This document shows positions 26 to 58,041 of a DNA stretch of 64,000 bases, piece after piece. The notes below the pieces were generated by a model. It made no database searches and was not told where the DNA came from. It saw nothing but the letters and a program-made list of their open reading frames with translations. Numbering within the stretch: the first letter of the stretch is position 1; every line of letters starts with the position of its first letter. A program made the translations under genes and the position numbers. Source of the DNA: Mytilus trossulus (taxonomy: Eukaryota); the NCBI RefSeq assembly GCF_036588685.1, contig NW_026963293.1, forward strand, positions 186,001 through 250,000, written 5' to 3'.

Positions 26-365
26 TAAATAGTTATCAAAGGTACCAGGATTATAATTTAGTACGCCAGATGCGCGTTTCGTCTACATAAGACTCATCAG
101 TGACGCTCATATCAAAATATTTATAAAGCCAAACAAGTACACAGTTGAAGAGCATTGAGGATTCAATATTCCAAAAAGTTGTGCCAAATACGGCTTAGGT
201 AGTAATCCATGACTGTGATAAGAAAAGTCTTAGATTTTCGGTAAATTCAAAGTTTTGAAAACATGAAATTTATAAAACTGACCACATTATTAATATTCAT
301 GTCAACACCGTAGTGTTGACTACTGGGCTGGTGATACCCACGGGAACGAAACGTCCACCAGCAGT
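26..365 (-). mobile_element. Hammerhead-bearing retrozyme-type element, family A, nearly one full monomer
   Basis: Closely matches 53722-54119 and 56713-56853. Contains a hammerhead at 63-106 and part of the structured module at 319-365. Confidence 0.85.
63..106 (-). ncRNA. Minimal type I hammerhead ribozyme with an AUC cleavage triplet
   Basis: Minus strand reads GCGUCA CUGAUGA GUCU-UAUGU-AGAC GAAA C GCGC AUC UGGCGU. Core boxes, stem I and stem II are intact. The GUC>AUC change breaks the C-G pair of stem III. Confidence 0.8.
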
Positions 366-631
366 TAAGCCATCTATCTACATAAGCCTCTGCATTTAAC
401 GAACAGCAGATGTACCGAAAATAAAAGTTTCAGTGATAATTCATGTAAACAAGTGTACCTTCTGAACTTCAACTAACTATGGAACTGACCCAGTCATAAT
501 TAAGCAAGTAGTAAACAAGTAAACGAGACCAACGTTTCACCAGGCCTTACAAAATCTCAACAGTGGTTATACAACCTTCACAAATAATTATGGTTTTACT
601 TTTTTCAAGTAAGTAACACTAATCATCAACA

Positions 632-637
632 TTTATT
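632..637 (-). promoter_or_regulatory. Candidate polyadenylation signal of USP-A
   Basis: AATAAA on the minus strand ~675 nt past the stop. An ATTAAA variant lies nearer (~810), so the assignment is uncertain. Confidence 0.3.
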
Positions 638-1310
638 TACATACATATATACATATATATTTACAAATATTACATGTTTTTTATATCTTCAATTGGGTAC
701 ACATCATTAACAGGGAATATGAGTCCATATTCCTTGTGAGGCCCAAATACAAATTGTATTCCATTGTAGTGTATGATTATTATCACCAGTCTGCTCTTCC
801 TTTTTTTTTTTAATTTTCAAATGATTTGAACTAATACTCCCTGTTAAGATTATCCTCAAATTGCACGAAAGTATATTTCACTTCAGTATGATATACGTCG
901 GTAAAGAGGTATTGATTTTAGGGGTAGAATACTTGAATGTCTATATCACATCAAGATAATTACTGTTAACTGCATACATTAATCCAAAAACAGTCACATT
1001 CATTACAAATAAGCAACTGATATATATAAAGAAGATGCATGGAATTGACTATTAATCAAACCAATCAAACACGTACTTACACGCACACGCACACACACAC
1101 TCATCTGTATCTCTGGTTTTTGTATTTATATCATAGCTTGTGCCTTCCAATGTATCTTAAAAATGATTATATGTGGTATGATTGCCAATGAGACTACTAT
1201 CCACCGCAGTGTTGGTAAATAGATTAAATAAACTATACAAAATTGTTGTTTCCAGCTGCAGCATCGTGGTCGTTGACAGTGCAATGTTCACAAACAAGTT
1301 ATGTTAAATA

Positions 1311-1538
1311 CTAAGGTTTATGATGGTGGCCTTCTTTGTGATGTGGATGTGGAATGGTCATGACTGGTATGTGAGCGTGGTGTAGTATGAAACCACTAAC
1401 ACTTCCAAGAAATGTTCTGCGAAATGTACCATGTCCTCTACATCCAGTTACAATCATGTCTGCGTTTAATTCCTTGGCTATATTTAATATTCCTTCGCCA
1501 GGGGAACTTGCCTGCGTGCTTTTAACTACACCATTTAA
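1311..1538 (-). CDS. USP-A exon 4 (last coding exon)
   Basis: tttcag acceptor, then LNGVVKSTQASSPGEGILNIAKELNADMIVTGCRGHGTFRRTFLGSVSGFILHHAHIPVMTIPHPHHKEGHHHKP*. Contains the USP G-2x-G-9x-GS motif. Confidence 0.95.
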   Translation of the reverse strand, partial: LNGVVKSTQASSPGEGILNIAKELNADMIVTGCRGHGTFRRTFLGSVSGFILHHAHIPVMTIPHPHHKEGHHHKP

Positions 1539-2535
1539 CTGAAAGATACATCATTTTAAAAATTATCCGTTGCACAGAGCATTGATAATTTCTTCTTATT
1601 TATATATAAAGATAATATGATAACATAATATACAAATATACAAAAGATTACAACGATCTAGCACCTTCGTCCACCTTAAAAACCTGATACAACGTTATGT
1701 ATTTCGCTACCTTGACATAGACCGTTGATTTCCCTGTTTGAATATTTTTACACTAGTAATTTTGGGACCCTTCATAGCTTGCTTTTCGGTGTGAGCCCAG
1801 GCTCCGTGTTGAAGTCCATACTTTGACGTATGATTAAATACATTTTACACTTGCGCTTTACGTAGAATGTTGTGCCATTGGCACTTATACAACATCTACC
1901 TATTTCTATTAACATGAGTCTGACATATAAATTGATACACCTAGTATCTATGGTTAGTTGATACAAAAAAGGGAAATGTAAAAGAAATACCAATACGTCT
2001 ACAGTCAACTGGTGATCATGTATTTTTTGGGAACTGGGAATAAAATCCCTATGCCACTGACAGTCTATCTACATAATGCATTTATTATGACCGTTTTTGT
2101 AAAATGTATCATAAATTAATAAGGTTGAGAGTGATAACTATTTTTAAAAGTTCCATTGAAGCATTTGGGGTGAAATATATTATTAAATAAGCAGTGTTAC
2201 GCAGCAGCTAAGGTTCTTATCCAATATATATTAGTATTTTGTAGATAGCAACACGACAGGTGCAATATGTGTCATGTAGCATGTCGCATGTTTTTGGTAG
2301 TTATAAATACTTGATTTAAATGGTTATTGATGAAAGTATACCCGGGAGATCCATGCAGATCCATATGATTTATATTGGGTTATTTTGATTGTTTGAACTG
2401 ATTTATATACAAGTTAAACATTCTGAAGCTTTCTCATTGCAACGCTTGTTTTTTTATTCATCTCAAGGCAACTGATATTGATATACAAATACTCTGTATA
2501 TCGACTTGACAAATATAATTTGCTACCATCTTCAC

Positions 2536-2642
2536 CTTTATTTCCCTCATGTATACAGCAAATTCTATTAATCTGGTTTTTATTCTTTCAATTTCCTGGT
2601 CAATTAGTTGCTTCAAAACCTCACGATCAATCGAAAAATTTG
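2536..2642 (-). CDS. USP-A exon 3
   Basis: ttaacag acceptor and gtgaag donor; (A)NFSIDREVLKQLIDQEIERIKTRLIEFAVYMREIK. Same 107-nt length and phases as USP-B exon 3. Confidence 0.9.
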
Positions 2643-4668: not shown

Positions 4669-4749
4669 CTGTAGCTACAATATCACTCAGTTCGACACAG
4701 TAAACAACTATTATCTGATCAGTTGGCTTGTAGCACCAATCAGCATAAA
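4669..4749 (-). CDS. USP-A exon 2
   Basis: cctttcag acceptor and gtaata donor; (F)YADWCYKPTDQIIVVYCVELSDIVAT. Homologous to USP-B exon 2 (VYCVE). Confidence 0.92.
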
Positions 4750-7034: not shown

Positions 7035-7307
7035 GGGAACAACCATTTGACTTCAAAAGGGGGGGGGGGAATGGAAATATTCCGATCCCCAATTTGATAA
7101 AAAAAAAAAAAATGGTAATACAGATGATAAAAAAAATTATTTTGAATCAAGAGTTTCCCCATACCGTATAGTGTTAAACATTGAAAAAAAAGTATGTGAT
7201 CACCAGCGTCGAAAAAAAAGGAATAAAAACGTACGCGCGAAAAAAAATCTGACTCAGATAAAAAAAAAATAACCCTCCCCCTTTTTTTAAGTTAAGTGGT
7301 TGCTACT
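7035..7307. mobile_element. MITE nested in the 6825-8230 element
   Basis: Imperfect TIRs gggaacaaccatttgactt / aagttaagtggttgctact, subterminal G and C tracts, and TTA on both sides. Confidence 0.7.
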
Positions 7308-9548: not shown

Positions 9549-10684
9549 AAAAAGTCAATTGTTTATGAACAATTGAAAGGTCTTTCTTTTTTTCTTTTAT
9601 TAATTGCCTTCTTAGTTCAAAAATATATGGTTTCTAAGGACTTTTATGTTCATAACAAGTGGTTTCTAAGGACAAAAATCATTCCTAAGGATAAAAATAT
9701 TACTACCAGTATTAAAAATGTCATATGTACTATTTATAGTATTTAAAGTTAAAAAAATAAGTGATTGCTAAGGACTTATATGTCGTTGCTAGGGACAAAA
9801 ATGTCATTTCCAGTATTAAAAATTTCATATTTATATTATTCATAGCCTTTTAATTTCAAAAATATTTGGTTGCTAAGGTGTTTTATGTCGTTGCTAGGGA
9901 CTTGACCTCTGACCTTCATCTAACTTTGTAGATCTTATTATGCTGAACATTTTTGCAATTCAAAGTTTCTTTCTATCTCTAACCACTTTTGAGTAATAAG
10001 CAAACAATCATCATTTCGGACCCCAAAAACAGTTTTGGTGACCTAGTTCCATAACATTCAGTCCAATAATTTTGAACCCACATAACAAATGTAGATCTCG
10101 ACAAGACACACATTTTCTCCGTTACATTTTATCAGCCATCTTTTACGGTTATTGAGTAAATCCGATAACAAGCTAAGGTCAAAATCTAGGTCATGGCCTT
10201 GACCTTTGACCTTAGGTCAATTTTCATGGTCACGTGAATTGATGATCATAAGTGATGATCCTAGATGGCTACAACTTACGGTTTCTGAGTTTTAGTGGCC
10301 AACCGACATTGATTAATTTTCAAAGGGGCATACATGTAACCCTACCAATGAGTCGTTGAATCTTTTCGATCTAAATCTAACGAAGAACTAAGGTCTGTCC
10401 CTGAACAAATTCCACCCTTTTTTTTCTACCTATTATGGTTATGGAGTTAGAATGATAACAAGGTTTTCGGTGTTAGGAGAGATAACCGCTATAAAGGAAA
10501 TGTTACAGGGTCGTGCCCTCACCACAATATAGCTTTTGGTCAACCGATACTAGATACCTAATATTATTTCAACCTGTCACGTACTTTTTTGGGGAAATTT
10601 CGTTAAAGTTTGGCGGAAAAAATAATAATAATCAGAAGAAATACAGTATGGTCTTTCCTTATAGAAAAAAGGAAAGACCTTAAT
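9549..10684 (-). mobile_element. Helentron-associated non-autonomous element (HINE/DINE-like), copy 1
   Basis: 5' palindrome ggtctttcctt..aaggaaagacc (10650-10679) next to an (ATT)n tract. Subterminal repeat aggtctttc near 9578. 3' stem-loop tcaattgtt-tatg-aacaattga (9555-9576). Internal ttgctaaggac subrepeats. A second copy lies at 26966-28068. Confidence 0.75.
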
Positions 10685-10716
10685 AAAACTGAAATGTCAA
10701 TAGATGTTCTTTTCAT

Positions 10717-15472: not shown

Positions 15473-16416
15473 AATATATATATCTGTTCAATTGCAGGAT
15501 AAATGCAAACGACTTAATTCCCTTTGCCTGCGAAATCATTAGATAATTTATAAAGATAAAATAGACAGAGTTTGAATACGAGTTTTGATTTTGTTTTCAG
15601 GAATAGTGAAATCTAAATTGAACAGATTTGAAAAGAATATACTATATATGAATTCTAACTGTTAATACAATTCACGGATAGATACAAATGACTTAATTCC
15701 CTTTGACTATGAAACTTTTTTTGTTTGCAGCTGATGTCAATTTATTCAACGATATTTCTTTCGGTTTGTTGTTAATAAATTGTTAATATATATATCTGTT
15801 CAATTGCAGGATAAATGCAAACGACTTAATTCCCTTTGCCTGCGAAATCATTAGATAATTTATAAAGATAAAATAGACAGAGTTTGAATACGAGTTTTGA
15901 TTTTGTTTTCAGGAATAGTGAAATCTAAATTGAACAGATTTGAAAAGAATATACTATATATGAATTCTAACTGTTAATACAATTCACGGATAGATACAAA
16001 TGACTTAATTCCCTTTGACTATGAAACTTTTTTCGTTTGCAGCTGATGTCAATTTATTCAACGATATTTCTTTCGGTTTGTTGTTAATAAATTGTTAATA
16101 TATATATCTGTTCAATTGCAGGATAAATGCAAACGACTTAATTCCCTTTGCCTGCGAAATCATTAGATAATTTATAAAGATAAAATAGACAGAGTTTGAA
16201 TACGAGTTTTGATTTTGTTTTCAGGAATAGTGAAATCTAAATTGAACAGATTTGAAAAGAATATACTATATATGAATTCTAACTGTTAATACAATTCACG
16301 GATAGATACAAATGACTTAATTCCCTTTGACTATGAAACTTTTTTCGTTTGCAGCTGATGTCAATTTATTCAACGATATTTCTTTCGGTTTGTTGTTAAT
16401 AAATTGTTAATATATA
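15473..16416. repeat. Near-perfect tandem triplication of a 312-bp unit
   Basis: tatctgttcaattgcagg recurs at 15481, 15793 and 16105. I see only one substitution among the copies. Confidence 0.97.
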
Positions 16417-21759: not shown

Positions 21760-21913
21760 AAACTCATCATATATACCAGGATTAAATTTTGTACTTACGC
21801 CAGACGCGCGTTCTGTTTACAAAAGAGTCATCAGTGACGCTCGAACCCAAAATAGGCCAAATAAAGTACGAAGTTGAAGAGCATTGGTGACCTAAACGTT
21901 TTGCCAAATACAG
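21760..21913 (-). mobile_element. 5'-truncated family A retrozyme with a damaged hammerhead (21797-21840)
   Basis: CUGAUGA and GUC are present, but GAAA has become AGAA and stem II is mispaired. Confidence 0.8.
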
Positions 21914-22824
21914 TAGTAATCGACAAAAGCACTTAACACTAATACAGTATAACATTGAAGCACACAAATAAGCACACGTACATTAAACATTGTAACATCT
22001 CTAAGACTTCTGTTTTTGTTTCAAATTGCAAGATTAAAAGTCCTGTTAGACCAGTTTTTACGAATGAATATTAATAGGCCTGCCCTGACGGATTATTTGA
22101 TATCTTACTGAGCAACTATAGTAATATAACATAGTCATATTTTCTATGTTTTTATGCGTGGTCAGTCCAATATTGGAAGTGTTGAATTACATATTCCATT
22201 TAAGTAAGTTTAGTATATAACATGATAATTGTGAACATAAAATAGAGAGTAAAATAAAATGAGTTGCTTTCGTGCTTCTTGTTTTTGTTTGTTTGAAAAC
22301 CGTAGCTGAAACAAGTGGTAAGTTCTATCATCAGATTCTATTGACTATTGTGCTGGACCGACTAATTTTATTTACTTACAATCAATATGACACAAAATGA
22401 TATTCATAAATGCTTCATATGTAATTTATAATTCATGTCAGGAAGTCATTTTTCAAAGAAAACATACAGAGGAGACAACAAAGGAAATTGTAGAATATCT
22501 CATACATATTGATAATGTATAAACTAATTTGCACTGCATATTAAACTAGATTAGAAACTATTCTCCACGTCAAAAACCTTATAGTTGAATGGGGTCATAA
22601 ATACATATATAAACTCAATCGTCGATAACGAAAAAGCAGTTTCCTCGTCAATTCTTTTTAATATTTGCGAAGTGTAAAACTCGATGGTTATAAGTTTCTA
22701 AGTTTACAAAACATTAATGTTTAATGAATTTTAATATCTCTGATGAAACGAGAGGGTGCTACAGAGTAAAGGCTTATAAAAAAAAACATTGCTAATTGAC
22801 AATAAATTTGTTGTCAGGCATAAA

Positions 22825-23007
22825 TTACCTTAGCTGTATTTGGCAAAACTTTTAGGAATTTTGGTCATCAATGCTCTTCAACTTCGTACTTTATTTGGCC
22901 TTTTTAACCTTTTTGGATTCGAGCATCACTGATGAGTCTTTTGTAGACGAAACGCGCGTCTGGCGTATATACAAAATTTAGTCCTGGTATCTATGATGAG
23001 TTTATTT
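22825..23007 (+). mobile_element. 5'-truncated family A retrozyme
   Basis: Reverse complement of 25378-25565; ends ...gatgagtttattt. Confidence 0.85.
22923..22966 (+). ncRNA. Minimal type I hammerhead ribozyme, intact core
   Basis: GCAUCA CUGAUGA GUCU-UUUGU-AGAC GAAA C GCGC GUC^UGGCGU, predicted cut after 22960. Stem I has one mismatch and can extend through GGAUU (22915-19) pairing with AGUCC (22980-84). Confidence 0.88.
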
Positions 23008-24926: not shown

Positions 24927-25271
24927 CGTATTGTTATGCGTTTACTTTTCTACATTGGTTAGAGGGTTGAGATCTCACAAACATGCTTAACCCCGCCGCA
25001 TTTTTGCGCCTGTCCCAAGTCAGGAGCCTCTGGCCTTTGTTAGTCTTGTATTATTTTAATTTTAGTTTCTTGTGTACAATTTGGATATTAGTATGGCGTT
25101 TATTTTCACTGGACTAGTATATATGTGTTTAGGGGCCAGCTGAAGGACGCCTCCGGGTGCAGGAATTTCTCGCTACATTGAAGACCTGTTGGTGACCTTC
25201 TGCTGTTGTTTGTTATTTGGTAGGGTTGTTGTCTCTTTGACACATTCTCCATTTCCATTCTCAATTTTATT
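24927..25271 (+). mobile_element. Truncated copy of the 10717-11526 interspersed repeat
   Basis: Direct sequence similarity; lacks the MITE insertion. Confidence 0.75.
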
Positions 25272-25419
25272 TCGATTCTTTTCTAATAGTTGTAATTAAT
25301 CACAAACAAACACAGATGACCATCAATATTTTTATTTCACTTATGTGTTGCAAACTGATAATCATTATTATACACTGAAATAAACTCATCATAGATACCA
25401 GGATTTAAATTTTATATTT

Positions 25420-25463
25420 ACGCCAGACGCGCGTTTCGTCTACAAGACACTCATCAGTGACGC
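25420..25463 (-). ncRNA. Minimal type I hammerhead with intact core and weakened stem II
   Basis: GCGUCA CUGAUGA GUGU-CUUGU-AGAC GAAA C GCGC GUC^UGGCGU, with one G.G mismatch in stem II. Confidence 0.8.
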
Positions 25464-25794
25464 TCGAATTAAAAAATGTTTAAAAGGCCAAATAGCTATA
25501 GAGTACGAAGTTGAAGAGCATTGAGGACCAAAAATTCCTAAAAGTTTTGCCAAATACAGCTAAGGCAATATATTCGTGTGGTAGAAAAGCCTTAGTTTTT
25601 CAAAAATTCAAAGTTTTTGTAACAGTTAATTTATAATTATGAACATATCAATGATAACTCAAGTCAACACAGAAGTGCTGACTACTGGGCTGGTGATAAT
25701 TACTCTCGGGGAAATAAATCTCCACCAGCAGTGGCATCGAGCCAGTGGTTGCAAATAAACTCATTATAGATATTAGGATTAAAATTTTATATTT

Positions 25795-25838
25795 ACGCCA
25801 GACGCGCGTTTCGTCTACAAAAGACTCATCAGTGACGT
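25795..25838 (-). ncRNA. Minimal type I hammerhead ribozyme, fully intact
   Basis: ACGUCA CUGAUGA GUCU-UUUGU-AGAC GAAA C GCGC GUC^UGGCGU. All core residues and stems are present; predicted cut between 25801 and 25800. Confidence 0.9.
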
Positions 25839-26965
25839 TCGAATTAAAAAATGTTTAAGAGACCAAATAGCTATAGAGTACGAAGTTGAAGATCATTGAG
25901 GATCAAAATTTCCTAAAATGAACTCTTGTTATTGCATCTTTATCTGGAATTGTCACACCTCTTATAATAATATACAACTGCGACATTTAACAGTTCTTAT
26001 CTTTGATAAGCCATTTTACAGTTTTTATCAAATGAAGTCAACAATATTCTACATAAATCTAATGGTACAAATAAGCATATGTTGTGTATCAAATCCAGAT
26101 GAATCAAGGTTAATACGCATGCCTTGCTAAAAAATTAAGTGCATGATGGGAAGAAAATTAATATGATGTTTATGTGTGTAGGACCCTGGACCAAGATAGT
26201 ACTCCCAACCGCGATATTGAAGTTGAAATACGACGGTTTGACGTTGAAGAGCATTTTTGTCACGTTGAAGAACGATGACGACATTGGGACGTTATCTTGG
26301 TGTTTGATACGCCAAAGTGCGATGATGGCAACGCTGAAGTGTGGTGGATTACATAAACTATTTTTTCAATGATTTTGATATCAATGTAGACGTCACTTTT
26401 AATTGTTCATAAGGGGGATTTACTTTCAATACTATGGGAAATGGATGAAAACTACAAGGGAAAGAGGGTAAATATTACCTTCTTCGATGTACTTTTTATT
26501 AAAATGTGTTTTAGATGTATGAAGCAGCGTGGCCTTCTTTGAATAAATATGTACCCGCAGACTCTCCGAAATATAATATAACGGTAAACGAGAAAATCAT
26601 GAGTGTAACAAAATAAAGAAAAGTGCTAACGCAGAATTATATTCATATTCAGATATTTAAAGAGGGCGATCTCTCGTCTAGTATGCAACTATAACTTATG
26701 ACATACATAGACAATGCAAATGTGTATACTAACTAGGAAACAAATACACCGCTAATATCAATTGCACGTCTGTAGATTTTAAACTATCACGCGTCATATA
26801 AACCATCGCATATCAACGAACGGACCATTGCACATCAGCGTGACCATTGCATTTCTGTGTTCTTATCCCACTTCTGAGTCCTAAGTGAAAAACAAACTTT
26901 GACATAATTTCATAATTGATATATAAAAGTAACATAAATAACCGAGAAAAAAGATAGTCTGAAAT

Positions 26966-28068
26966 AAAAAAGTCAATTGTTCATTTGAAAGGTCTTTCCT
27001 TTTTCTTTTATTGATAGCCTTCTTAGGTAAAAAAATATATGGTTGCTAAGGACATTTATGTTCCTAACAATTAGTTATTATGGACAAAAATCATTCCTAA
27101 GGATAAAAATATTCTCCCAGTGTTGAAAATGTTAATTAAAAACTATTCATAGTCTTTGAAGTTAAAAAATAAGTGATTGCTAAGGACTTCTATGTAGTTG
27201 CTTGGGACAAAAATTTCATTTCCAGTATAAAGACATTCATATTTATATTATTCATAGCCTTCAAAAATAATTGGTTGCTTAGGTGTTTTATATCGTTGCT
27301 AAGGATCTGGACCTCCAACCTTGACCTAATTTTATAGATCTTATTATGCTGAACATTTTTGCAATTCAAAGTTTCTTTCTATCTCTAACCTCTTTTGAGT
27401 AATAAGCAAAAAATCATCATTTCCGAGCCCAAAAAATGATTGGTGCCATAGGTCCATAATAGTTGGTCCAATAATTTTGGACCCAGCATAACAAATGTAG
27501 ATTTTGCCAAGACACGCATTTTCTAATTACATTTTATCAGTCATCCTTTACGGTTATTGAGTAAATTCGATAACAAGCTAAGGTCAAAATCTAGGTCATT
27601 ACCTTGACGTTTGACCTTAGGTTAATTTTCATGGTCACGTGAATTGATGATCATTAATGAAGATTCAAGGTGGTTACAGCTTACAGTTTCTAAGTTTTAG
27701 TTGCCAACCGACATTGGTTAATTTTGATGAGTCGTTGAATCTTTTCAAACCAAATGTAATGAAGAACCAAGGTCAGCTTCTACACAAAATCTATCCTTCG
27801 GTTTTTTTTCTACCTATTATTGTTAAAGAGTTAGAATGATTACAAGGTTTTCGGTGTTAGGGGAGATAACCACTATAAAAGAAAGGTTACGAGGTCGTGC
27901 CCTTACCACAAAATAGCTTTTGGTCAACCGATACTAGATACCTAATATGATTTTAACATGTCGCGTACTTATTTTGGAAAATGTCGTTAAAGTTAGGCGG
28001 ACAGAATATTAATAATCAGAAGATATACAGTAAGGTCTTTCCTTATAGTGAAAGGAAAGACCGTAATA
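26966..28068 (-). mobile_element. Helentron-associated non-autonomous element, copy 2
   Basis: Collinear with 9549-10684. The empty paralogous site is at ~31841-31860 and there is no TSD. Confidence 0.8.
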
Positions 28069-36500: not shown

Positions 36501-38972
36501 CTGGTGTTGCTTTACAACTGCAGTCGAATACGACCCTGATTGGTGTTGTTGTTGAATCTTTTCTCACAGCATGATGCGGAATATAGTGTATTTTGCTCTT
36601 TTCATCGGCCTCATTAGTAGTATCCACTTTCTCTATGAAGCCGCTTTTCTCCTGCTCAGCCATTATTTCTCCATATTTTTCCAGTAGTTTGGGTTCCTTG
36701 CTAAGTCTTCTTACTACACTTTCCGTCCTTCGTTGTGCAATGGCTTTATTTGTCGGTAACGTAGGGTGATCCTCTTTCCATGGTAACGTTACAAAATATC
36801 TGTTGTCAGTCATGGTAACGAATTTGTTTCTCTTCATAAGTCTTTTGAATATCCATCTGTTCTTCTAACTTTGTAGTGTCAATTATCTCGGTAGCCAGTG
36901 ACTCTATTTTCCAAAATTTCTCCAAGTCGTACTCATCGGTTTTTGTTGCGATCATCACGGTCATCATTGAAGCTCTCTTGTATCCATCTATGTCAGAGTT
37001 GTGTGAATGTAGCGTTTCAGACAACAGGTATCCGATTTTTGATTGAACAGCTGTCGGTCATTCGCCTCGGATAATATCATTCTGAACAATTGACCAGAAG
37101 TAATCAGCTCCAATTAGAATAGAAATTTCAAAGTTTTCATCTGCTGTTACTGGGTGAGCTAATTTGATTCCTGACAAATATGTAAGTTTTGCTGCTTGGC
37201 GTACATAGGTTCTCATCGGTACTGCGATCTCTGGAACGATCAAGACTCGAATCGGAAGTTTACCCTCTGTAGTTATGAGATATACCAATCCTGTACTCAA
37301 ATTGTCTCCAAATCCGGATAGGTTAACGCTTTCAGTTCCAGTAGGTTTGAGTTTCAATTTTTCGGCTAATTCCTCTGTGATAAATGAGCGCTGTGCGCCT
37401 TCGTCAAACAATATTTTTGCATCAAGTATTTCATGTTCTGCACTTACTGGGTTAATTGCTGTCTTCAAAAGTACACGATCTGTCGATTGCGAGTGTAAAA
37501 CAGTGTCTGGTTCCTCCGCGTTGTGTTGAATTGTGCCTACGGTTATATCCCCTGTTGGTTTGTTGTCTTCATTTGTTTTAACATTATCTTTGCAAATGCT
37601 GGTGTGATGACGTTTGTGACACTTGTTGCAAGTTTTTGTAGATTTACATGCGGACAAGCTATGGTGTCCTAGACAGTTAAAGCATAAACGATCTTTTTTC
37701 ACGATTGACATCCGGCCATTGTAATCAGATACTTTAGTGCAATTAACAGACGAGTGTGGCTCCTTACAGTACGCACAGAGTGGCTTGGGTTTAGTGATAG
37801 TTGCGTTTGTATTCTTGTTACCTCTATTTCGATTACTATAATTTGTATTTGTCAGAAAGGCGGCGGTAGCTGTAGGGTGTTCTAACTGTTCTGAAGTTTT
37901 GCCTGCATCCATAATATAAAATTCATCGAAAATTTCACGGCGTAATTCATTCAGTTGTAAATCTGTAGATCTATATTGTCTGGCAAGATTTCTGCGGATT
38001 TCACCGGGTAGTTTGTTCATAATAATGGGCACTAAAAACGCTCCATATGTGTCTTCACTTTGACCTAATGACTCCAATCCTCTAATGTGTATCTCAATTT
38101 CATCGTAGAAGTTTTTCATGCTAAATATCGTGTATTTAGGGGCTGGTATATCAACTAGTGCTTGCATATACTTCTGTCTTATTACATGCGATTGTCCATA
38201 TCTTTCTTGCAGTAAAGAAATAGCTTTCTCATAAATTGCATGTGTAAGCGCAAACCCTGTGACGGTTTTCAATGCTTCATTATGGAGTAGTGACTTCAAA
38301 TAATTAAATTTCTGAACGTTTCCAAGAGTAGTGTTTTCGTGAATGGATGTCTCGTATGAATCCCAAAATGACTGCCACTGCATAATATTACCATCAAAGG
38401 TAAGAAGATTCAATTTGGGCAACTTGTTGTACTCATTTAATCTAGTGTTACTACGTGAAAACTGAGTTTCCGGTACACGGAAGTTTGAATTACATGTATT
38501 CTGTTTATTGTATATCTCGGGTTGAGCATAACTTTGTTGATCATGAGCAGGTTGAGCATAACTTGGTTGATCATGAGCGGGTTGAGCATGAGCGGGCTGA
38601 GCAGAGGCGGGTTGAGCAGAGGCGGAATGTGAAGGGTCGCTATAACTGACAAAATATTTTGCATTTGTACTGAGTGTGGATGTATTGACAAGAATGAGCT
38701 TTTGTATTTGCGTTATTTTTCCATCTAATGTGTAAGCATACTCATCTGAATCGACGATCTCGGCTTCTACTTCTCCTTCATCAAGATTTTCTAGAATGTC
38801 CTCATTAAGTTTTTGTAGTGTCTCTTGTTTCTTCAACAGATTGTTCACAATTTTAGTTAACTCTTCAGTGTTCACGGGCTCGTCTCCGTCGTCTCGGATG
38901 TCCTCAAATTTCTTCAAAAGTCGGGAAATAACTTCTGTGTCCTGCACGTATAGAACGTAGTTTGGAACTCAT
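33514..38972 (-). pseudogene. BEL/Pao gag-pol polyprotein with 4 frameshifts and 1 in-frame stop
   Basis: ATG at 38972 (MSSKLRSIRAGHR). Gag KLPKLNL..FDG and zinc knuckles, protease LFDEGAQRSF, RT YVDN, RNase H VFTDAS, integrase GVDFTG / SDN / WERL. Lesions near 38932, 37058 (TGA), 36808, 36403-36421 and ~35910. Confidence 0.93.
38520..38625 (-). repeat. 15-bp coding minisatellite in gag (xxxQP pentapeptides)
   Basis: Encodes ASAQPASAQPAHAQPAHDQPSYAQPAHDQQSYAQP. Confidence 0.85.
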
Positions 38973-43431: not shown

Positions 43432-43630
43432 GACCTAAGGTTTCAACTTTCTCGGGCAAAGTTGGCTTTAAATGAATTTGGCTATTTATTTTAGGTATTT
43501 TTGACATATAGCTCTTCAACGATTTTCTGTACTTATCTATCTTTCAAATGTTTGTCTTTGAGCGTTCCTGATGAAGGTAAATCCAGAAAAGCGATTCGGA
43601 CGCAAGAAATTATTAAACGTGTTGTTTTTA
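43432..43630 (+). mobile_element. Family B retrozyme fragment
   Basis: Shares gctcttcaac..gtactt..tttgagcgt with family A but carries a different hammerhead. Relics lie at 58251-58390 and 59240-59340. Confidence 0.7.
43562..43603 (+). ncRNA. Minimal type I hammerhead ribozyme, family B (UUC triplet)
   Basis: GCGUUC CUGAUGA AGG-UAAAU-CCA GAAA A GCGA UUC^GGACGC: 6-bp stem I, intact core boxes, very short stem II. Confidence 0.75.
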
Positions 43631-44333
43631 ATTCTTTAGTATGAATAATGCAAAATGTACAGCATCTTTTCGTTAAAACTCGTGTTTATTTTTACAAAAA
43701 GAACGTAGAAGCTTGCATATGACAAAAATATGTGTATTGACAACAAAGACTTTTAAGTAAGATGCCATTCCATTTTTTTTCTGAAATATCAAGTTTACTT
43801 TATATAAAATGACTAATATAAGTCAAATCATAATAAAACAATTTAACTGCTCAAGACATAAATATTTAATTAGGATATAATTCACAATGACAAGTGCATA
43901 AGTGATATATGTTTTGTATCTGATCCAAATAAATCGTTCGTATTTTCAATTTTTCTTGGTAGTATCACCAAAAGAAGTTGAGAAGAGGACTACTAAATTG
44001 GTTTCTTCAATTATGAATGTTAATATGTGACAATATATTTCTGTATATCAATTACTTTGTTTTAAAAGAAAAAAGGAATCTGGAAATCTTCAAGGATCAT
44101 TTTCAAATAATGACATCATGGTATTTTTTTTAATATCGGTAATAGAATATTTTGAAGAAGACTGCTGAAGGAAAAGATAAACATGATAGAATCATTTTCA
44201 AAACAATGTGGCTGTGGCCATTGACTGACGACCTAAATTATCCCATTGACTGGGACAGATTAGGTGAACATTTGTCTGTAACAAAAATTGCTCACTACTT
44301 ACTTATTATAGAATTTAAACCGTGGGGTCATCA

Positions 44334-44509: not shown

Positions 44510-47500
44510 CAAATACGTGAGTTAATATTAACCGTTTGCATAAAACTACATTTTTGGTGCATTTTGATAATATTCAAGATATAATGAAAATATATCACCT
44601 AATAAAAACCACGTAATAAAAAGCTTTTAAAAAATGTGTATACTTTGTGTATTGGTCGGCTGCCTTTAAACAAAATGTTTAGATATATTTGTCAAATACT
44701 GGTCTAAAATAAAACCTTCAAATTAATCAAATTAATTCTATTTAGTTTAATTAATGTCCATGCGGTATGAAATAAGCCGTAGGAGATAAGCAGTTTACAA
44801 CGGGTATGACATGTAAATATATTCCAGACAAAAAAATGACAATTACAAATTCGTTTATTTGTGTACATGGATATATATTGTATAACAATTACTTCTGTAT
44901 ATCACTGATGGTAATTGAAAGCTCAGTCCACAAATATTTAATGTACAGGTGATGTTCCACCCACGGACCGCGACCGTGTGATAATATAAATCAAATTTGC
45001 GTGTCGTGTGCAAAGTGTCGTCCCTCCTCTGGATATCCTAATTCTATCTTTTTTTGGGGGAATATTTTTAGAAATTCAAATGTAACGTCACTTTGTGTGG
45101 GTTTTTTTCGAATTTCAAATGTGACGTCACTTTGTGCGTAGAGGCTTTGGCTAACTCGGCTGTGTATTTTTTTGTGTTGGATTAGGTTGTTTTATGTAAT
45201 GTATCCGTTTATATTCCGTAGTTAGTCACCACTTCGGTTTTATCATGTATATCTATAATATAGTCATTTAAAAAAATTTACTGTTTGCAAAAAGTATGAA
45301 TTATTCTAAATAATAAGGATGTTATCATCCCAGGTAAAAAAAACCTAGCCGTATTGGGCACAACCTTTTATGAACTGTTGGTCTTGTCTTCGGTGTTATT
45401 CAACTTTGTACTTGTTTTGGCTTTCCAACTTTTTTCATCTGAGCGTCGCTGGTAAGTCTTGTGTGGACGAAGCGCACGTCTGGCGTATTAAATTGTAAAC
45501 CTGTTACCTTTTGTTAGCTATTATTCGTGTGTTTCTCTGTCCTATATGTTCTCCCATTTATTTGTATTGTAGTCCTGTCATGTAATGTTGTCATTTTAAT
45601 GTTATATTTAATATTACCATAAGAGCAGGAGGTTTGGCATGCCACAAAACCAGGTTCAACCCACCATTTTTTTTCTTAAAATGTCCTGTACCAAGTCAGG
45701 AAAAATGGCCATTGTTATATTATAGTTCGTTTTTGTGGGTGTCGTTGTTCTCCTCTTGTATTTGATGCGCTCCCCTCAGTATTTAGTTTGTAACCCGGAT
45801 TTGTATATTTCTCAATCGATTTATTAGTTTCGAACAGCGGTATACATGGTATACTACTGTTGCCTTTTTTTTTAAGTCTGTATTTTATTTTATGAAGACG
45901 AAAAGTTGAAATGTGTGAATTCATGATAAATAAACTCATCATATAACAGGACTGAAAAAGAAATACATTCCTGTTTACACTATATGACCTTTGGTTTTAA
46001 ACGCAAAGCAGGGGATATGTTTGTAAATAGGGAAGATCCGTCAAGACTCAAATGTGGCATCACTTATTGATATTAATGAATTAATAGTGTGGATTCAAGG
46101 ATATGTGTCAACAATTGTGTACGAATACAATTATTGGGTTCACTATAGACAAGGTGTGAATGACCAATCCTATTATTTCTTCTTTATTAACTTGATTCTT
46201 GATAACAAAGTATTTTTGAAATTACTTAAGAATTTCATTGACATAAACATTGTAATTGATTGTAATTGATTTTTTTAAAAGCAAACTAGTAATTGCTGCT
46301 CAATGCAATAACACTGAAATTTCAATTGGATGAAATAACAGATAAAGAACTAAAATCTCTATTACACTATATGCATATTTGTCAACAAGTTCAATTGTGG
46401 AACAGATCTAGATGAAATTGGAGAGTAGACCAAAGATAGTAGCTAACTCAAAATTGACAAATAAATGAGAGTTTTAAAGATTGTCTATTGCCCTCATACA
46501 CATTGTATGATTTTAAGGATTTCAAAAAATGCTTATATCCTATTTTTTCTACGCGGTTTATTTTATTTACCCGTTTGAATAATTGTACGGTATTCTAAAT
46601 CAAACTGTGGTTTGGTGATGTTGACTTTGCAAGGACGTGTTTTTGATTTTGAAATATTCATATACTAGTCAAAAAAAGAAACGTTATATTGTTTTTGATT
46701 TGAAAATATCACATATTTTAAGTTCAAATATTTTCATGATTAAAACTAGTAACCTGAATGATTTATCTTTCAAATTTACTGATTTACAAAAACGCAAGTA
46801 AATACTAACCTTATGCATAAAAACTACATTCTTTGTGAAGTAATGTTGATTGCATTCAAAATATTATGAAACGTTTTACCAAATACCAGAGCTGACTCAA
46901 TACAAAGCATTTAATAAAAACCGCTTTTTAAAATTGTGTATACTTGTGTATTGGTCGGCTTCGTTCTCTAATTGTGTTTTTTTGTGTTCAGATAAATGAA
47001 AAATAATACAGTATTGATAAATAAAATGTGGTCTCAAATAAAACCTTCAAATTATAATCAAATTAATTCTATTTAGTTTAATTAATGTCCATGTCGTATG
47101 AAATAAGCCCTCGGTGAATTCATGATACATAAACTCATCATATAACAGGACAGAAAAAGAAATACATTCCTGTTTACACTATACATGCTATATGACCTTT
47201 GTTTTTAAACGCAAAGTAGGGGATATGTTTGTAAATATGGAAGATCCGTTTAGACTCGAATGGGGCATCACTTATTGATATTAATGAATTAATAGTGTGA
47301 ATTCAAGGATATGTGTCAACAATTTGAAGGATACAATTATTGGGTTCACTATAGACAAGGTGTTAATGACCAACCCTAGCATTTCTTCTTTATTTACTTG
47401 CTTCTTGATAGCAAAGTATTTTTGAAATTACTTTAGAATTTCATTGACTCCTACATAAACATTGTAATTGACTGTAATTGATTTTTTTTAAAAGCAAACT

Positions 47501-49225
47501 AGTAATTGCAGCTCAATACAATAAAACTGACATTTCAATTGGATGAAATAACAGATAAAGAACTAAAGTCTCTATTACACTATATGCATATTTGTCAACA
47601 AGTTCAATTGTGGAACAGATCTAGATGAAATTGGAGAGTAGACCAAAGATAGTAGCTAACTCAAAATTGATCGTACGAATAAATGAGAGTTTTAAAGATT
47701 GTCTATTGCCCCCATACACATTGTATGATTTTAAGGATTTCAAATAATGCTTATATCCTATTTTTCTACGCGATTTATTTTATTTACCCGTTTGAATAAT
47801 TGTACGGTATTCCAAATCAAACTGTGGTTTGGTGATGTTGACTTTGCAAGGACGTGTTTTTGATTTTGAACTAATCATATACTAGTCAAAAAAAGAAACG
47901 TTATATTGTTTTTGATTTGAAAATATCACATATATTAATTTCAAATATTTTCATGATTAAAACTAGTAACCTGAATGATTTATCTATCAAATTTACTTAT
48001 TTATAAATACGCAAGTAAATACTAACCTTATGCATAAAAACTGCATTCTTTGTGAAGTTATGTTGATTGTATTCAAAGTATTATGAAATATTTACCAAAT
48101 ACCAGAGCTGACTCAATACAAAGCATTTAAAACAAACCGCTTTTTAAAATTGTGTATAATTGTGTTTTGGTCGGCTTCGTTCTCTAATTGTGTTTTTTGT
48201 GTTCAGATAAAGGAAAAATAAATACAGTATTAATAAATAAAATGTGGTCTCAAATAAAACCTTCAAATTATAATCAAATTAATTCTATTTAGTTTAATTA
48301 ATGTCCATGTCGAATGAAATAAGCCCTCGGTCAATTCATAATACATTAACTCATCATATAACAGGACTGAAAAAGAAATACATTCCTGTTTACTCTATAC
48401 ATGCTATATGACCTTTGTTTTTAAACGCAAAGTAGGGGATATGTTTGTAAATAGGGAAGATCCGTTAAGACTCGAATGGGGCATCACTTATTAATATTAA
48501 TGAATGAATAGTGTGAATTCAAGGATATGTGTCAACAATTTGAAGGATACAATTATTGGGTTCACTATAGACAAGGTGTTAATGACCAACCCTAGCATTT
48601 CTTTTTTATTTACTTGATTCTTGATAACAAAGAATTTTTGAAATTACTTTAGAATTTCATTGACTCCTACATAAACATTGTATTTGACTGTAATTGATTT
48701 TTTTTTAAAGCAAACTAGTAATTGCAGCTCAATACAATAAAAGTGTAATTTCAATTGGATGAAATAACAGATAAAGAACTCAAATCTCTATTACACTATA
48801 TGCATATTTGTCAACAAGTTCAATTGTGGAACAGATCTAGATGAAATTGGAGAGTAGACCAAAGATAGTAGCTTACTCAAAATTGATCGTACAAATAAAT
48901 GAGAGTTTTCAAGATTGTCTATTGCCCCCATAAACATTGTATGATTTTAAGAATTTCAAATAATGCTTATATCCTTTTTTTCTACGCGGTTCATTTTATT
49001 TACCCGTTTGAATAATTGTACGGTATTCCATATCAAACTGTTGTTTGGTGATGTTGACTTTACAAGAACGTGTTTTTGATTTTGAAATAATCATATACTA
49101 GTCAAAAAAAGAAACGTTATATTGGTTTTAATTTGAAAATATCACATATATTAATTTCAAATATTTTCATGATTAAAACTAGTATTACCTGAATGATTTA
49201 TCTATCAAATTTACTAATTAATAAA
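44510..49225. repeat. Tandem array of a ~1.2-kb unit (partial + 2 full + truncated copy), interrupted at 44779-45914
   Basis: aactcatcatataacagga recurs at ~45932, 47131 and 48347 (periods 1199 and 1216). An older fragment lies at ~53190-53452. Confidence 0.93.
45050..45860 (+). mobile_element. Composite interspersed repeat containing a dead hammerhead (45443-45486)
   Basis: Retrozyme-like segment 45250-45510 with CUGGUAA/GAAG in place of CUGAUGA/GAAA, fused to a tail (aaaaccaggttcaacccaccattttt..ccaagtcagga) also seen at ~29260 and ~41280. Confidence 0.65.
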
Positions 49226-50624
49226 AATATCGGAAATGACGTGACGTCATTTTCTGATTTCAAACAAATAACCATGTTTTCAAAAATTTACCTGTATAGA
49301 GATAGAATCGAGTTGTACTTTTGGTCATTATTTGTGTCGAACACGATTGTTCACAAAAGGTCGTATTAAAAAATTGAAAACGTTACACGTAACGTTAAAC
49401 GTAAGTCAGTGCCCCGTCTACGTCAAAATGAGAGAGAAAGAGCTATTGGGATGTTGGCAGCAGGAATGACTCAAGTGCAGGTTGCAAATCATTTTAATGT
49501 CTCTAGAATGACTATTGCAAGACTTAAGACTCGCCTTCGAGATACTAGCACAACAAATGATCGCCCCCGTAGTGGCAGGCCACGTAAAACGACGTTACGT
49601 CAAGACAGGCACATCCGCATCATTCATCTCCGGATTCGATTTTTAAACGCGTCACAAACTGCACGACAAACCCACGGGAGACATAACAACAGAATATCTG
49701 CTCAAACAGTTCGTAACCGATTGCGTCAAGTTGGTCTAAGAGCTCGTCGTCCATTGAAGGGACCTATCCTTACGCAGCGTCACAAGATGGTGCGACTTCC
49801 ATGGACTCGGGTACGGATTCGATGGAATAGGCAAACATGGAGACAGGTTCTTTTTACCGGTGAATCTAAATTCAACTTGCAATTTAGCGACGGCAGAGCC
49901 AGGGTGTACCGGAAGCGCAATACACGATTTTCTGATTTTCTGCGGGCAGGAAACAGATCGGTTTGGTGGCGGCGGAATCATAGTTAGGAGCGGAATAACC
50001 TACCAGGAACGCACCGAGCTGAAAATCATCGTTGGTAACCTTAATGCAACAAGGTTTAGGGACGAAATTCTTGCTCCAGTTGTTCTCCCGTTCCCCGAAG
50101 ACATCGTTTTAACCACGTTTTTCAGCAGGAAAACACCCGTTGTCACGTGGCACACATTTCGATGACCTTTTTGGAGAATAACCATATTCGTGTATTGCCT
50201 TGGCCAGCAATGTCTCCAGATTTATCGCCATTTGAACATATTTGGGACGAACTTGGCCGACGTATCAGAAATAGCCAAAATCCACCGGAAACGCTCGCCC
50301 AGCTCCGAACAGCACTTTTCATGGAATGGAACAACATCCCTCAAGACTTTATTCGACGTCTTGTTGATTCCATGCGACGGAGGTGTCAGGCGGTCATAAA
50401 TGCAAGAGGTGGTCATTCAAGGTATTGACATGCTAATCTGAATTCTGTACACGTCCTGTTAAAAATGTCCGAAAACGTGCAATATTGTTTTCAATAGAGA
50501 AAACTAGTCATTATTCTCTTCAAAATTATGTTAGCTAACTATTCCATTTACTTATTGTTATCAATATTTTGTTATAAAAAAAAATAATCTTAAAAGCATG
50601 TAACGTTTATTTTTTTGCCTAGTA
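49225..50624 (+). mobile_element. Tc1-family DNA transposon, left end missing
   Basis: Transposase remnant plus a Tc1-like right terminus (..aacgtttattttttttgcctagta followed by TA). No matching left TIR was found. Confidence 0.85.
49409..50428 (+). pseudogene. Tc1 (DD34E) transposase pseudogene
   Basis: Paired-like HTH, GRPRKT, WPAMSPDLSPFEHIW and NARGGHSRY. Start codon is GTG, with frameshifts at ~49940 and ~50095. Catalytic Asp residues are changed (FTGES, FQQEN), with 34 residues to the Glu. Confidence 0.93.
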
Positions 50625-53600: not shown

Positions 53601-53721
53601 GCTGTATCGTTGACGTAATATCATATCAGTTTTCTATTCATAGTGCCTGAGGCATAAACAAGTGAACCAAACGTAAATTAAATATTTAAACGATCTTGAT
53701 TTGTACTAAAATCTGATCTTC

Positions 53722-54119
53722 AATAGTTATCAAAGGTACCTGGATTATAATTTAGTACGCCAGACGCGCGTTTCGTCTACATAAGACTCAACAGTGACGC
53801 TCATATCAAAATATGTATAAAGCCAAACAAGTACAAAGTTGAAGAGCATCGAGGATCCAAAATTCAAAAAAGTTGTGCCAAATACGGCTAAGGTAATCTA
53901 TGTCTGGGATAAGAAAATCCTTAGTTTTTCGAAAATTCAAAGTTTTGTTAACAGGAAATTCATTAAAAGTGACCACATTATTGATATTCATGTCAACACC
54001 GAAATGTTGACTACTGGGCTGGTGATACCCTCGGGGACGAAACGTCCACCAGCAGTGGCATCGACCCAGTGGTGTAAATACTTATCAAAGGGACCAGGAT
54101 TATAATTTAGTACACACCA
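53722..54119 (-). mobile_element. Family A retrozyme: one 355-bp unit plus a ~40-bp terminal redundancy
   Basis: aatagttatcaaaggtacc..ttagtac (53722) is repeated at 54077. The hammerhead at 53757-53800 carries CUGUUGA (A6U). Confidence 0.9.
54010..54073 (-). ncRNA. Conserved structured RNA module of unknown function inside the retrozyme
   Basis: Nested helices with compensatory and G-U-compatible changes across four copies (319-365, 25681-25749, 54010-54073, 58267-58326). Confidence 0.6.
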
Positions 54120-55902: not shown

Positions 55903-55990
55903 ATTCAATTGCAAACATAGAATTATCACTTCCGTCTATTCCAATAACTACTTTTTTACCCTTGGAGCTCTCTTTTAACTTTTCTGCCAT
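55903..55990 (-). CDS. USP-B exon 1
   Basis: acaATGG start; MAEKLKESSKGKKVVIGIDGSDNSMFAIE plus T, then a gtaagt donor (phase 1, giving Trp with exon 2). Confidence 0.9.
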
Positions 55991-56147
55991 TGTGTTTTTT
56001 AATCCAAAATATAGAATTTTAACACTTATAAATTCTTCAATGCCCCATTTAACAAAATATGCAAGTAAACTTGTTCATCCAATGTAACAGGTCGGGATTA
56101 TGAAAAGTTTCTGATCAATCAACGAGGTATTGACTGATAGCGACTGT

Positions 56148-56162
56148 TGGGAATTTCCCACA
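56148..56162. promoter_or_regulatory. Candidate NF-kB/Rel site overlapping a CSL/Su(H)-type site upstream of USP-B
   Basis: TGGGAATTTCCCA palindrome fits GGGRNWYYCC; the minus strand reads TGTGGGAA. Lies ~160 bp upstream of the ATG. Confidence 0.45.
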
Positions 56163-56712
56163 AATTATCGATATGTTGTAGTAAAAAAGTACGCATCAAT
56201 ATTGTAAACAGTAGTTTAATATTCAATAGTTGCTTTTTATTAAAGAAATTTATCCTATCACATATTCAATGACAACGAAAATTGATACGAAACAACTGTT
56301 CGTCCATACTTTATTACATTAAGAATTGTTTTTGTCTAAGCGCTTTTTATTACAATAGTTTTTTTAAATACTTATTTTAAAGGGATTTATGAACTGAAAG
56401 CGATAATCTCTACATGACGAGGTATTTGCATCTTAGATATTTGTTTTAATTACATTTGACATTCAACTAAATTATTTCAGAAACATTGAACCAATATTTG
56501 GTCTATTCTAAAAAATGACACTTACCATGCGTGTTTTCGGTTTGAGCTTTACTATGTAATAAGACAAATGAATACAATGTGAGAAAAAAATCATTTCGAT
56601 GATTGCTTAACGGATTTGAATTTGGACAGAGAATCATCTTTATTCAGTTGAATCAATAGATCGACCGCATCATATAGGGTTCTCCAATGCATAGATACAA
56701 CAAAGGCAGGTT

Positions 56713-56853
56713 TAAATAGTTATCAAAGGTACCAGGATTATAATTTAATACGACAGACTCGCGTTTCGTCTACATAAGACTCACCAGTGACGCTCAGATC
56801 AAAATAGTTATAAAGCCCAACGAGTACATAGTTGAAGAGCATTGAGGACCAAA
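56713..56853 (-). mobile_element. 5'-truncated family A retrozyme with a mutated hammerhead (56750-56793)
   Basis: Core reads CUGGUGA (A6G); loop III is GCGA. Confidence 0.82.
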
Positions 56854-57746
56854 TAACAGAGTTATAAAATTTTAATCGACACGCTATATTATAATAAGGA
56901 ACGAAGTTTAGTCAAATTGTTGTGCTTAAAAATGTTTAAACTGTACTTTGACCTATACATGTTTTATTTACACAAATTGTGACTTGGATGGAGAACTGTC
57001 TTATTGGCACTCATACCACCTCTTCTTATATCTATTAAACGCGCTTATTTAAATATATGAAAAAGGTTAATTGTATAAAATGTGTATCATGTCATTATGT
57101 CCTCTAGCAGTACTATATAGGGGAAAAGCTGAATTTCTTTTTAAATACCAGACCGTTAGACAAATCGCTTTGTGTTTGTTTACATAGGATTTTACGTGGG
57201 AACCTGGCAGAAAGTTTGATGATTACTCTATATCGATGTGATAACATCAAACAACCGTATTAAAGTTCGTTCAATGCATATTTCTCAAAGTTGAGTAAAA
57301 CATTTTGTATACTCGTTTTCATTAGGTTAACATTGCGCGTACATCAATGCTACAATTGAGTAAACGTTTAATGGCCGCAAACTTTTTAGAATATTTTGTA
57401 TTATAACCTTATCTTACAGTATTTCATGTCTACTGTAAAATCATCTCTCTGAACTACACATCATAAGCAGCGCCAGGAAAAACTTAAAGAGAGACTATTA
57501 GTATATAATTATTGCATGTTGAATTACATCAATTATTCGGTTTGATGTTACAAGATTAAGACTATTATTTGTGAAAATCTGTATACTTTTTATAGGTCAA
57601 AAGAATCAATTTTTGCTTTTTCGATTACATTTTAGTGGTGAATACAATATGTGTTTTAATAAACTCATTATAGTTATACAAAATTCTCATTCTGATTATT
57701 GCAGGTAAACAAACGAAAATAATATACACAAATGTCATGCGTCCGG

Positions 57747-58041
57747 ATAAACTCACCATAGTGACCAGGATCGAAATTTTGTATATGTGCCAGACGCGCG
57801 TTTTGTCTACAAAAGACTCATCAGTGACGCTCGAATCAAAAAGTTAAAGGCTTAACAAAGTGCGAAGTTGCAGAGAATAGTCGACACAAATTCATTAAAG
57901 TTTTTCCAAATATAGATGAGGTAATCAATCCCTGAGTTAGAAAAGTCTTAGTATTTTAAAAATTCCAAATTTTGTAAACAGCTTATTTATAATTATGACC
58001 ATATCAATGATATGTCAGGACAACTTAGAAGTGCTAACTAC
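57747..58041 (-). mobile_element. 5'-truncated family A retrozyme with a mutated hammerhead (57787-57830)
   Basis: CUGAUGA is intact but GAAA has become AAAA (G12A, the catalytic base). Confidence 0.82.

Follow-up and report, generated by a model that had tools for sequence, protein, structure and literature searches.

Retrozymes of the mussel Mytilus galloprovincialis have been described as 350–390-nt families (Cervera and de la Pena 2020, PMC7229834). In the accessible parts of that paper, their RNA is reported as mostly circular in mussel tissue, self-cleavage is demonstrated for one copy (another copy than those treated here) with a slow ribozyme (~0.1 per min), and a circular template with a Penelope-like helper is already proposed; the priming mode is left open there, and those parts hold no map of the priming site, hairpin, helper clade or 5′ ends. 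The element analyzed here, in 64,000 nt of Mytilus trossulus DNA (GCF_036588685.1, contig NW_026963293.1, positions 186,001 to 250,000; the whole stretch is called the window), is the known mussel-type non-long-terminal-repeat (non-LTR) hammerhead retrozyme as those parts present it. It shares with the M. galloprovincialis elements a type I hammerhead, non-coding units of 350–375 nt, dispersed and tandem copies, low GC content and transcription on the ribozyme strand, and comprises at least four subfamilies against the two ribozyme families reported there. Units were 345–375 bp long, inside the 150–450 bp typical of metazoan non-LTR retrozymes, and arrays reached ~20 units; subfamilies A (~354 nt), B (~365 nt), C (345–350 nt) and an older fourth type were distinguished. 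A 22-nt word from the ribozyme core occurred 20,132 times genome-wide (reversed control, 0).

In the Anolis carolinensis Poseidon element PAc, the start of copying is internal to the RNA and lies past the hammerhead cut; the enzyme primes on uncut linear RNA and does not require cleavage (Frangieh et al. 2024, PMC11167929). The Naiad clade of Penelope-like elements is described as being without canonical hammerheads (Craig et al. 2021, PMC8557442), and the accessible text names no retrozyme partner or start-site hairpin for it. Retrozymes have also been presented as non-autonomous Penelope-like derivatives in a preprint that likewise proposes a Penelope-like mobilizer (Li, Clavereau, Pollet, bioRxiv 10.64898/2026.07.22.740005); its case, in the portions available, is made for vertebrates from co-occurrence and from homology of terminal repeats and includes no analysis of endpoints. 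In the mussel, the proposed link consists of a short structured element beyond the end, and no terminal-repeat homology could be aligned. Earlier publications, as far as they were accessible, already describe the retrozyme and its circles and propose a Penelope-like helper (PMC7229834, PMC4209133, PMC7761336, bioRxiv 10.64898/2026.07.22.740005). The papers describing animal retrozymes left open the route back into DNA and the enzyme responsible, and no paper was found with a map of retrozyme endpoints, with Naiads as the named helpers or with a second-round stop (subscription papers and two supplements lay outside the search). The element itself is known, and the mechanistic detail described here is likely new: retrozyme copies ended at one A|TT located 8–9 nt before a conserved predicted hairpin. 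In a reading held with moderate confidence, they are the products of a Naiad reverse transcriptase bound to the hairpin, with nicked genomic DNA as the primer and with both circular and ribozyme-cut RNAs likely serving as templates.

Genomic endpoints of retrozyme copies

A random sample of 100 evenly spaced 10-kb stretches (1 Mb) yielded 89 copies, 87 of them with a 3′ end clear of the stretch edges. Sixty of these 87 ended within -2..+12 of the A|TT site (binomial p 3e-61 against uniform phase), as did 28 of the 35 copies at least 88% identical to the reference; many of the copies without this canonical end were old or short internal fragments. The 5′ ends of canonical copies were spread from -1 to -302, and 8/60 canonical copies were longer than one unit. 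The full set comprised 236 stretches, six having been dropped beforehand as duplicates of the window or of each other, and 207 of its 294 copies ended at the A|TT site (mode +2/+3). A preliminary description of the window had anticipated a sharp 3′ peak and a tail of lengths above one unit; both were present in the sampled stretches. Against its model it had set scattered 3′ ends, or shared flanks from spread by DNA duplication; ends were fixed, and only 8 pairs among 206 canonical copies shared a 3′ flank.

A fixed end, scattered 5′ ends and short target duplications are the established marks of target-primed reverse transcription in non-LTR elements. In metazoan non-LTR retrozymes such duplications, where they occur, exceed 4 bp. 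Target duplications of at least 5 bp were found at 21/109 young copies against 7.1 in shuffled pairings (maximum 12), and with the fixed ends and scattered 5′ ends they uphold the earlier attribution to target-primed reverse transcription. In RNA reads of other individuals, loose ends were likewise seen at +41..+43 and were heterogeneous. The genome-search tables also listed sharp 5′ ends at -5/-8 and another 3′ end ~50 nt downstream; both were gone on re-alignment and were discarded as candidate-cutting artefacts.

The downstream hairpin

The distance from the ribozyme cut to the 3′ end differed among subfamilies (+41 in A, +47 in B and +33 in C; apparently near +36, by eye, in the older fourth type), and the ends at +41..43 in A and +43..48 in B were the same homologous site. 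The distance from the A|TT to the start of the downstream helix was 8 nt in A and C and 9 nt in B. It is therefore the hairpin, and not the cut site, to which the end is fixed. The predicted three-helix structure was 95% paired in 28 copies, and only 2/17 pairs were changed on both sides; single ribozyme copies that were folded gave no significant z-scores. The hairpin lies 3′ of the start site and is therefore absent from the end of each new copy.

The preliminary description took the fixed end as pointing to a circle. This step does not hold: the end is set by the downstream hairpin, and internal priming on uncut RNA by the PAc enzyme (in the parts of PMC11167929 available) means that a fixed internal end is by itself no proof of a circular template. 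According to the same text, PAc and the mussel retrozyme share an internal start downstream of the hammerhead and genomic ends that match the start site; PAc needs the RNA 3′ of its start, and its AT-rich targets are cut at ATT. Retrozyme priming may depend on RNA downstream of the start in the same way, as the conserved predicted hairpin would imply. PAc is autonomous and has two start sites 85–92 nt past the cut (by subtraction from the published numbers); they lie in an AC-rich stem-loop and give rise to a ‘tail’ (PMC11167929). The mussel retrozyme encodes no protein and has one U-rich site 31–47 nt past the cut with no second peak. A PAc-like second start with an optional tail of 30–40 bp was not found among the mapped ends, which formed a single peak. 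Apparent ends at +90 in the search output were artefacts.

Crossings and second-round stops at the ribozyme

Among distinct crossings of the scissile bond (copies at least 84% identical), an indel was found in 1/320. These unscarred crossings speak against frequent untidy jumps, and a circle and an uncut multimer fit them equally; together with the fixed end, they bear out the earlier view of a template continuous over the cleavage site with one U-rich internal start.

In long copies of all sets, 29/104 5′ ends lay at the ribozyme against 8.8 expected. The excess persisted among young copies, and 0/29 had an upstream piece ending at the matching phase. On the second round, 24/102 copies stopped within -10..+12 of the cut site (14 at +1..+11 and ten at -2..-6), compared with 6/108 in the preceding 23 nt (p 3e-4) and 3/69 at the ribozyme on rounds 3–5 (p 5e-4 against the second round). 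The first round had no ribozyme excess (4 against 6.2 expected, very short copies being under-detected). The spaced-pattern set (see below) was biased toward 5′ ends near +50..+64, and without it the second-round excess was 19/65 against 5.3 expected. Because the excess appears on the second round and fades on later ones, the templates are read as a mix of continuous and ribozyme-ended molecules; in the simplest reading some end at an upstream ribozyme and others are endless, the latter likely circular. The copy at 53722, which had been taken as evidence for rolling-circle copying, has its 5′ end at +5 and falls in the class that stops at the ribozyme on round two, as a template ending there would give. 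To account for stops at -2..-6, the enzyme would have either to hop a short way onto an upstream fragment that is still paired or to stall within the palindrome of stem III.

Arrays and RNA reads

A 15-unit array was 99.9% homogeneous, with two private variants and none shared, and a 3.4-unit array was 100% identical internally; such homogeneous arrays are as expected from one circle copied repeatedly. No near-identical parent of the homogeneous array was found among the 39 of 3887 candidates that were scored. Several other long arrays carried shared variants at periods of 2, 3, 4 or 7 units, a pattern pointing to block duplication at the DNA level or to multimeric circles. Array length therefore counts as weak evidence for rolling, and unit number alone does not establish it.

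Raw RNA runs of the same species were examined, including three stranded runs for which the usual library orientation was assumed. In the stranded runs the ribozyme strand was dominant by ~2- to 8-fold, the unit was wholly covered, and depth was continuous through the cut site and the +41 site. Reads wrapping exactly one unit, end to start, numbered 310–994 per run.

In a 19-unit subfamily C array (G000:C1:9106.6-9113.5 kb; L276-L292), the 5′ part consisted of subfamily B joined just past the C cleavage site, by template switch or insertion. At another locus (L063), where a subfamily C end is fused to B, a template switch was considered and rejected in favor of insertion because of a 7-bp duplication and an upstream B remnant.

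Naiad elements as candidate helpers

Two young Naiad-type families (matches of 99–100% identity) were found, with 58% protein identity to each other. A candidate protein matched a Neptune-type element in two regions: residues 87–193 corresponded to the GIY-YIG region at the C terminus of that element (E 2e-7) and residues 451–756 to its reverse transcriptase (E 5e-7); a Pfam search of the candidate gave no match. The candidates carried CxC and DKA motifs, four in-frame TGA codons and SECIS_1 matches (E 0.003 and 0.03, both under the gathering threshold). An N-terminal GIY-YIG-like region, CxC, DKA, in-frame TGA, SECIS-like matches and tandems are shared with the Naiad clade as described in the accessible text of PMC8557442; by eye, both families differ from the N-terminal sequences of Naiad_Mgal and Naiad_Mcor printed there. 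Naiads of some bivalves have selenocysteine codons together with SECIS elements. In-frame TGA codons at cysteine-like positions were seen in Naiad-type families at L200:3161-3225 (-) and L355:205-262 (+).

Naiad copies ended much as the retrozymes do. In Naiad-1, 52/58 3′ ends lay within -2..+8 of the family’s own A|TT; in Naiad-2, 35/71 lay at 0..+8, and 14 others belonged to an earlier-diverging sister family. At Naiad tandem junctions a helix starts 8 nt later. The first base of GTGGA lies 30 nt past the junction in A, C and both Naiad families (31 nt past it in B), and a hairpin and TCCCCG come next; predicted folds of retrozyme and Naiad junctions placed the basal helix at the same position (paired changes were read by eye). 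The GTGGA/TCCCCG word pair had 14 matches in 1 Mb, one of them outside retrozyme-like sequence. The Naiad-2 words were predicted before its junction was seen; since Naiad-1 and Naiad-2 are related, they are no independent test. The colinear-word score for Naiad-2 against A+B+C had p 0.002 and was the best of 92 windows. A genome-wide spaced pattern gave 620 matches (control, 0), and 100 of them classed by eye comprised 75 retrozyme-type, 24 Naiad-1 and 1 other; as the pattern was built from both elements, it shows specificity only. An alignment of the retrozyme and Naiad groups with MAFFT misaligned the two and was set aside.

Two of the 294 retrozyme copies begin immediately after the 3′ end of a Naiad-1 copy, and no upstream remnant was seen; ~0.08 such direct fusions were expected (own arithmetic). 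Naiad-2 RNA was seen as low sense-strand coverage of the 5′ region and open reading frame in 1/4 runs. Naiad-1 formed tandem runs with a spacing of ~4.02 kb; no hammerhead core was detected in it, and Rfam returned no twister-like motif at E up to 1. From these sequence comparisons, a Naiad reverse transcriptase is the likely helper of mussel retrozymes.

L036:1-3900 and L368-L370 hold a young Penelope-like element of Neptune type; it carries an inverted 5′ copy in head-to-head arrangement and a degenerate hammerhead-like core ~190 nt short of its end.

Proposed mechanism

In the favored scheme, the GIY-YIG domain of a Naiad would nick AT-rich DNA, and the freed end would pair with UU(U) at the start site. 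Copying would proceed over 31–47 nt to the ribozyme and then across the intact bond. About a quarter of second-round copies would exhaust their template at the ribozyme, the template being a nicked circle or a tandem transcript with a cut upstream ribozyme; the remaining ones would continue as on a closed circle, and some long arrays would later extend at the DNA level. The hairpin, being 3′ of the start, would go uncopied at the new end; a copy would have to exceed about one unit to retain a hairpin next to a start and serve as a source. A bolder and more tentative proposal, on which we would not yet rely, is that mussel retrozymes parasitize selenoprotein-coding Naiads through a start-site hairpin mimic outside the copied end, with the ribozyme as a length switch: cut RNA would give one unit plus ~40 nt, and a closed circle would give tandem arrays.

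If true, this bolder proposal would amount to evidence from the genome that an animal circular RNA undergoes rolling-circle reverse transcription, with the enzyme and the start and stop sites named. A direct in vitro test becomes possible with the start site mapped, a 70-nt hairpin as candidate recruiter and two young families as candidate helpers, and the second-round stop offers a readout separating circle, nicked circle and tandem transcript. The scheme would also bear on the role of ribozymes in Penelope-like elements generally.

Alternative explanations

Several observations weigh against the proposed scheme. No target duplication of 5 bp or more was found at 88/109 young copies. The three stranded RNA runs had no pile of read starts or ends at the cut site, and the wrapped reads fit circles and tandem transcripts alike. 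On the side of the helper, the colinear-word score for Naiad-1 had p 0.09, the shared words were chosen after looking and were controlled against one other Penelope-like family (Neptune-type), a covariance model built from retrozymes only matched no Naiad junction, and the local alignment of the retrozyme with Naiad-1 was not significant (p ~0.7). On the side of the template, the 23 nt following the ribozyme had 10/78 stops, over which the second-round excess was not significant (p 0.08), and round 3 alone had 3/38 stops (p 0.052). The ten of 24 stops 2–6 nt beyond the cut site cannot be explained by plain run-off. The long copies come from targeted searches and not from the random sample, and DNA-level growth may inflate the later-round counts.

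Were all copies DNA-level duplicates of one truncated ancestor, the shared end would be inherited and uninformative on priming. A few loci behave in this way: four copies including 45223-45522 and two more pairs share 3′ flanks, and window copies have near-identical duplicates on contig C36. The 8 flank-sharing pairs among 206 copies make such spread a minority; the otherwise unrelated flanks, the three subfamilies of different sequence ending at a homologous site and the target duplications above chance largely refute it, and almost no weight is given to it. That the helper is another Penelope-like family (of Poseidon, Neptune or Hydra type, with its own hammerhead), the resemblance to Naiad being convergence or chance, has more in its favor and is still regarded as very unlikely. 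Xenopus retrozymes have relatives in the terminal repeats of Penelope-like elements with hammerheads, according to the available text of bioRxiv 10.64898/2026.07.22.740005, T-rich 3′ ends may be general to GIY-YIG elements, and neither local alignment nor the covariance model found significant similarity to Naiad junctions; against this, two Naiad families only 58% identical in protein keep the same helix and word spacing from the junction, the words were absent in 5/5 loci of the Neptune-type family, and two retrozymes are fused directly to Naiad-1.

Linear tandem transcripts that escape cleavage wholly or partly could be primed internally as in the anole Poseidon, with no circle at all and with long arrays arising from source arrays or DNA-level growth. 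The PAc work makes this credible, since unprocessed RNA was the main substrate in vitro and hammerhead mutants had no effect on insertion (in the accessible parts of PMC11167929); the slow mussel ribozyme (PMC7229834), the 14/24 second-round stops at +1..+11 and the long arrays with periodic shared variants agree with it, as do the Naiad-1 tandems without a detected hammerhead core, which were downgraded as proof of ribozyme-free tandems. A constant chance of cutting, however, predicts ~24% stops on each round, and rounds 3–5 gave 3/69; the 15-unit array is homogeneous without shared variants, the 3.4-unit array is only 98% identical to the closest sequence outside it among the 39 of 3887 candidates that were scored, and circles are given as the main RNA form in mussel tissue (PMC7229834, as far as accessible). 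A purely linear template is accordingly thought unlikely. The opposite extreme, a template that is always a covalently closed monomer, would turn the second-round excess into a stall at the GC-rich core of the ribozyme, where the enzyme has to displace the cDNA it has already made; this would suit the unscarred junctions, the homogeneous young arrays, the ten stops within the GC-rich palindrome and the lack of a first-round excess (subject to the under-detection of very short copies noted above). Such a stall should recur on rounds 3–5, where the excess is weak; the equally GC-rich hairpin region had no later-round excess (11 against 14.2 expected), and the excess straddles the scissile bond, so that this version is judged distinctly improbable. 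The mixed pool of circular and ribozyme-cut RNAs remains the preferred reading.

Retrozyme copies and other repeats in the window

The seven copies of the preliminary description were all present, at 26, 21760, 23007, 25378, 53722, 56713 and 57747. Their common end 41–48 nt past the cleavage site was recovered (+43, +43, +47, +48, +41, +43 and +46, respectively), as were the variable 5′ ends, with local-alignment lengths of 340, 162, 197, 541, 392, 145 and 295 bp. The cleavage triplet had been given as GUC, and the copy at 26 has AUC. No open reading frame of at least 100 amino acids was present at any of the seven, and 4/9 ribozyme cores in the window were intact. Rfam placed one type I hammerhead over the gathering threshold and three more under it.

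Subfamily A was represented by three of these copies, all on the - strand. The copy at 26..365 (cleavage C at 69; 3′ end +43) is 5′-truncated within the downstream hairpin and has a partial hairpin-model match at 316-386. The copy at 53722..54113 consists of one unit plus 37 nt (unit 355 bp), with its 3′ end at +41, its 5′ end at ~+5 of the upstream cleavage site and an altered CUGANGA core; its internal A|TT site and downstream hairpin (54007..54082, -) matched model R1 at 100.1 bits, with a fold z of -3.65 over 53990-54080. The copy at 56713..56853 (cleavage C at 56756; end +43) has an altered core.

Subfamily B was represented by four copies. Those at 21760..21914 (-; 79%; cleavage C at 21803; end +43) and 57747..58041 (-; 81%; cleavage C at 57793; end +46) are old and have altered GAAA cores, and the copy at 22814..23007 (+; cleavage C at 22960; end +47) has an Rfam Hammerhead_1 match at 22923-22966 (28.5 bits, under gathering). 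The copy at 25378..25918 (-) spans 1.48 units (unit 375 bp) with two hammerheads (cleavage C at 25426 and 25801; end +48), matched by Hammerhead_1 at 25795-25838 (35.7 bits, the one over gathering) and 25420-25463 (30 bits). Within it, at 25678..25759 (-), lie an A|TT priming site and, downstream, the conserved hairpin with its predicted three-helix fold (model R1 match of 70.5 bits), a likely candidate for the element that recruits the reverse transcriptase. Near-identical duplicates of window copies with the same flanks lie on contig C36 (L002, L072), which is likely an alternative haplotype in the assembly.

An eighth, older A-like copy (76%) at 45223..45522 (+) ends at +42. Its 3′ flank is common to three copies elsewhere (L054, L174 and the G000:C2:98006795 region), and with the same flank at four loci, this copy likely did not insert on its own but belongs to a composite repeat that had taken up retrozyme sequence. 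The older fourth type, with a different hammerhead and the same downstream hairpin, was seen at ~43541-43633 (+), 59259-59326 (-) and 58233-58342 (-), and with a period of ~346 nt at G000:C3:73.11 Mb; the 57747 copy may have inserted into a copy of this type. Two Naiad 3′ end fragments, each ending at its own A|TT site, also lie in the window: a Naiad-1 family fragment at 25153..25272 (+), outside any retrozyme copy, and a Naiad-2 family fragment at 56943..57036 (+).

Other repeats comprised a Bel/Pao-type LTR retrotransposon at 33514-38968 (-; several frames with DUF1759, Peptidase_A17, integrase zinc-binding and DUF5641) and a Tc1/mariner-type transposase at 49370-50428 (+; three frames, HTH_Tnp_Tc3_2). 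A 312-bp tandem trimer (99% identical) spans 15473-16416, a tandem triplication of 1.2 kb spans 45915-49276, and one repeat occurs twice, 17.4 kb apart, at 9591-10674 and 27003-28058.

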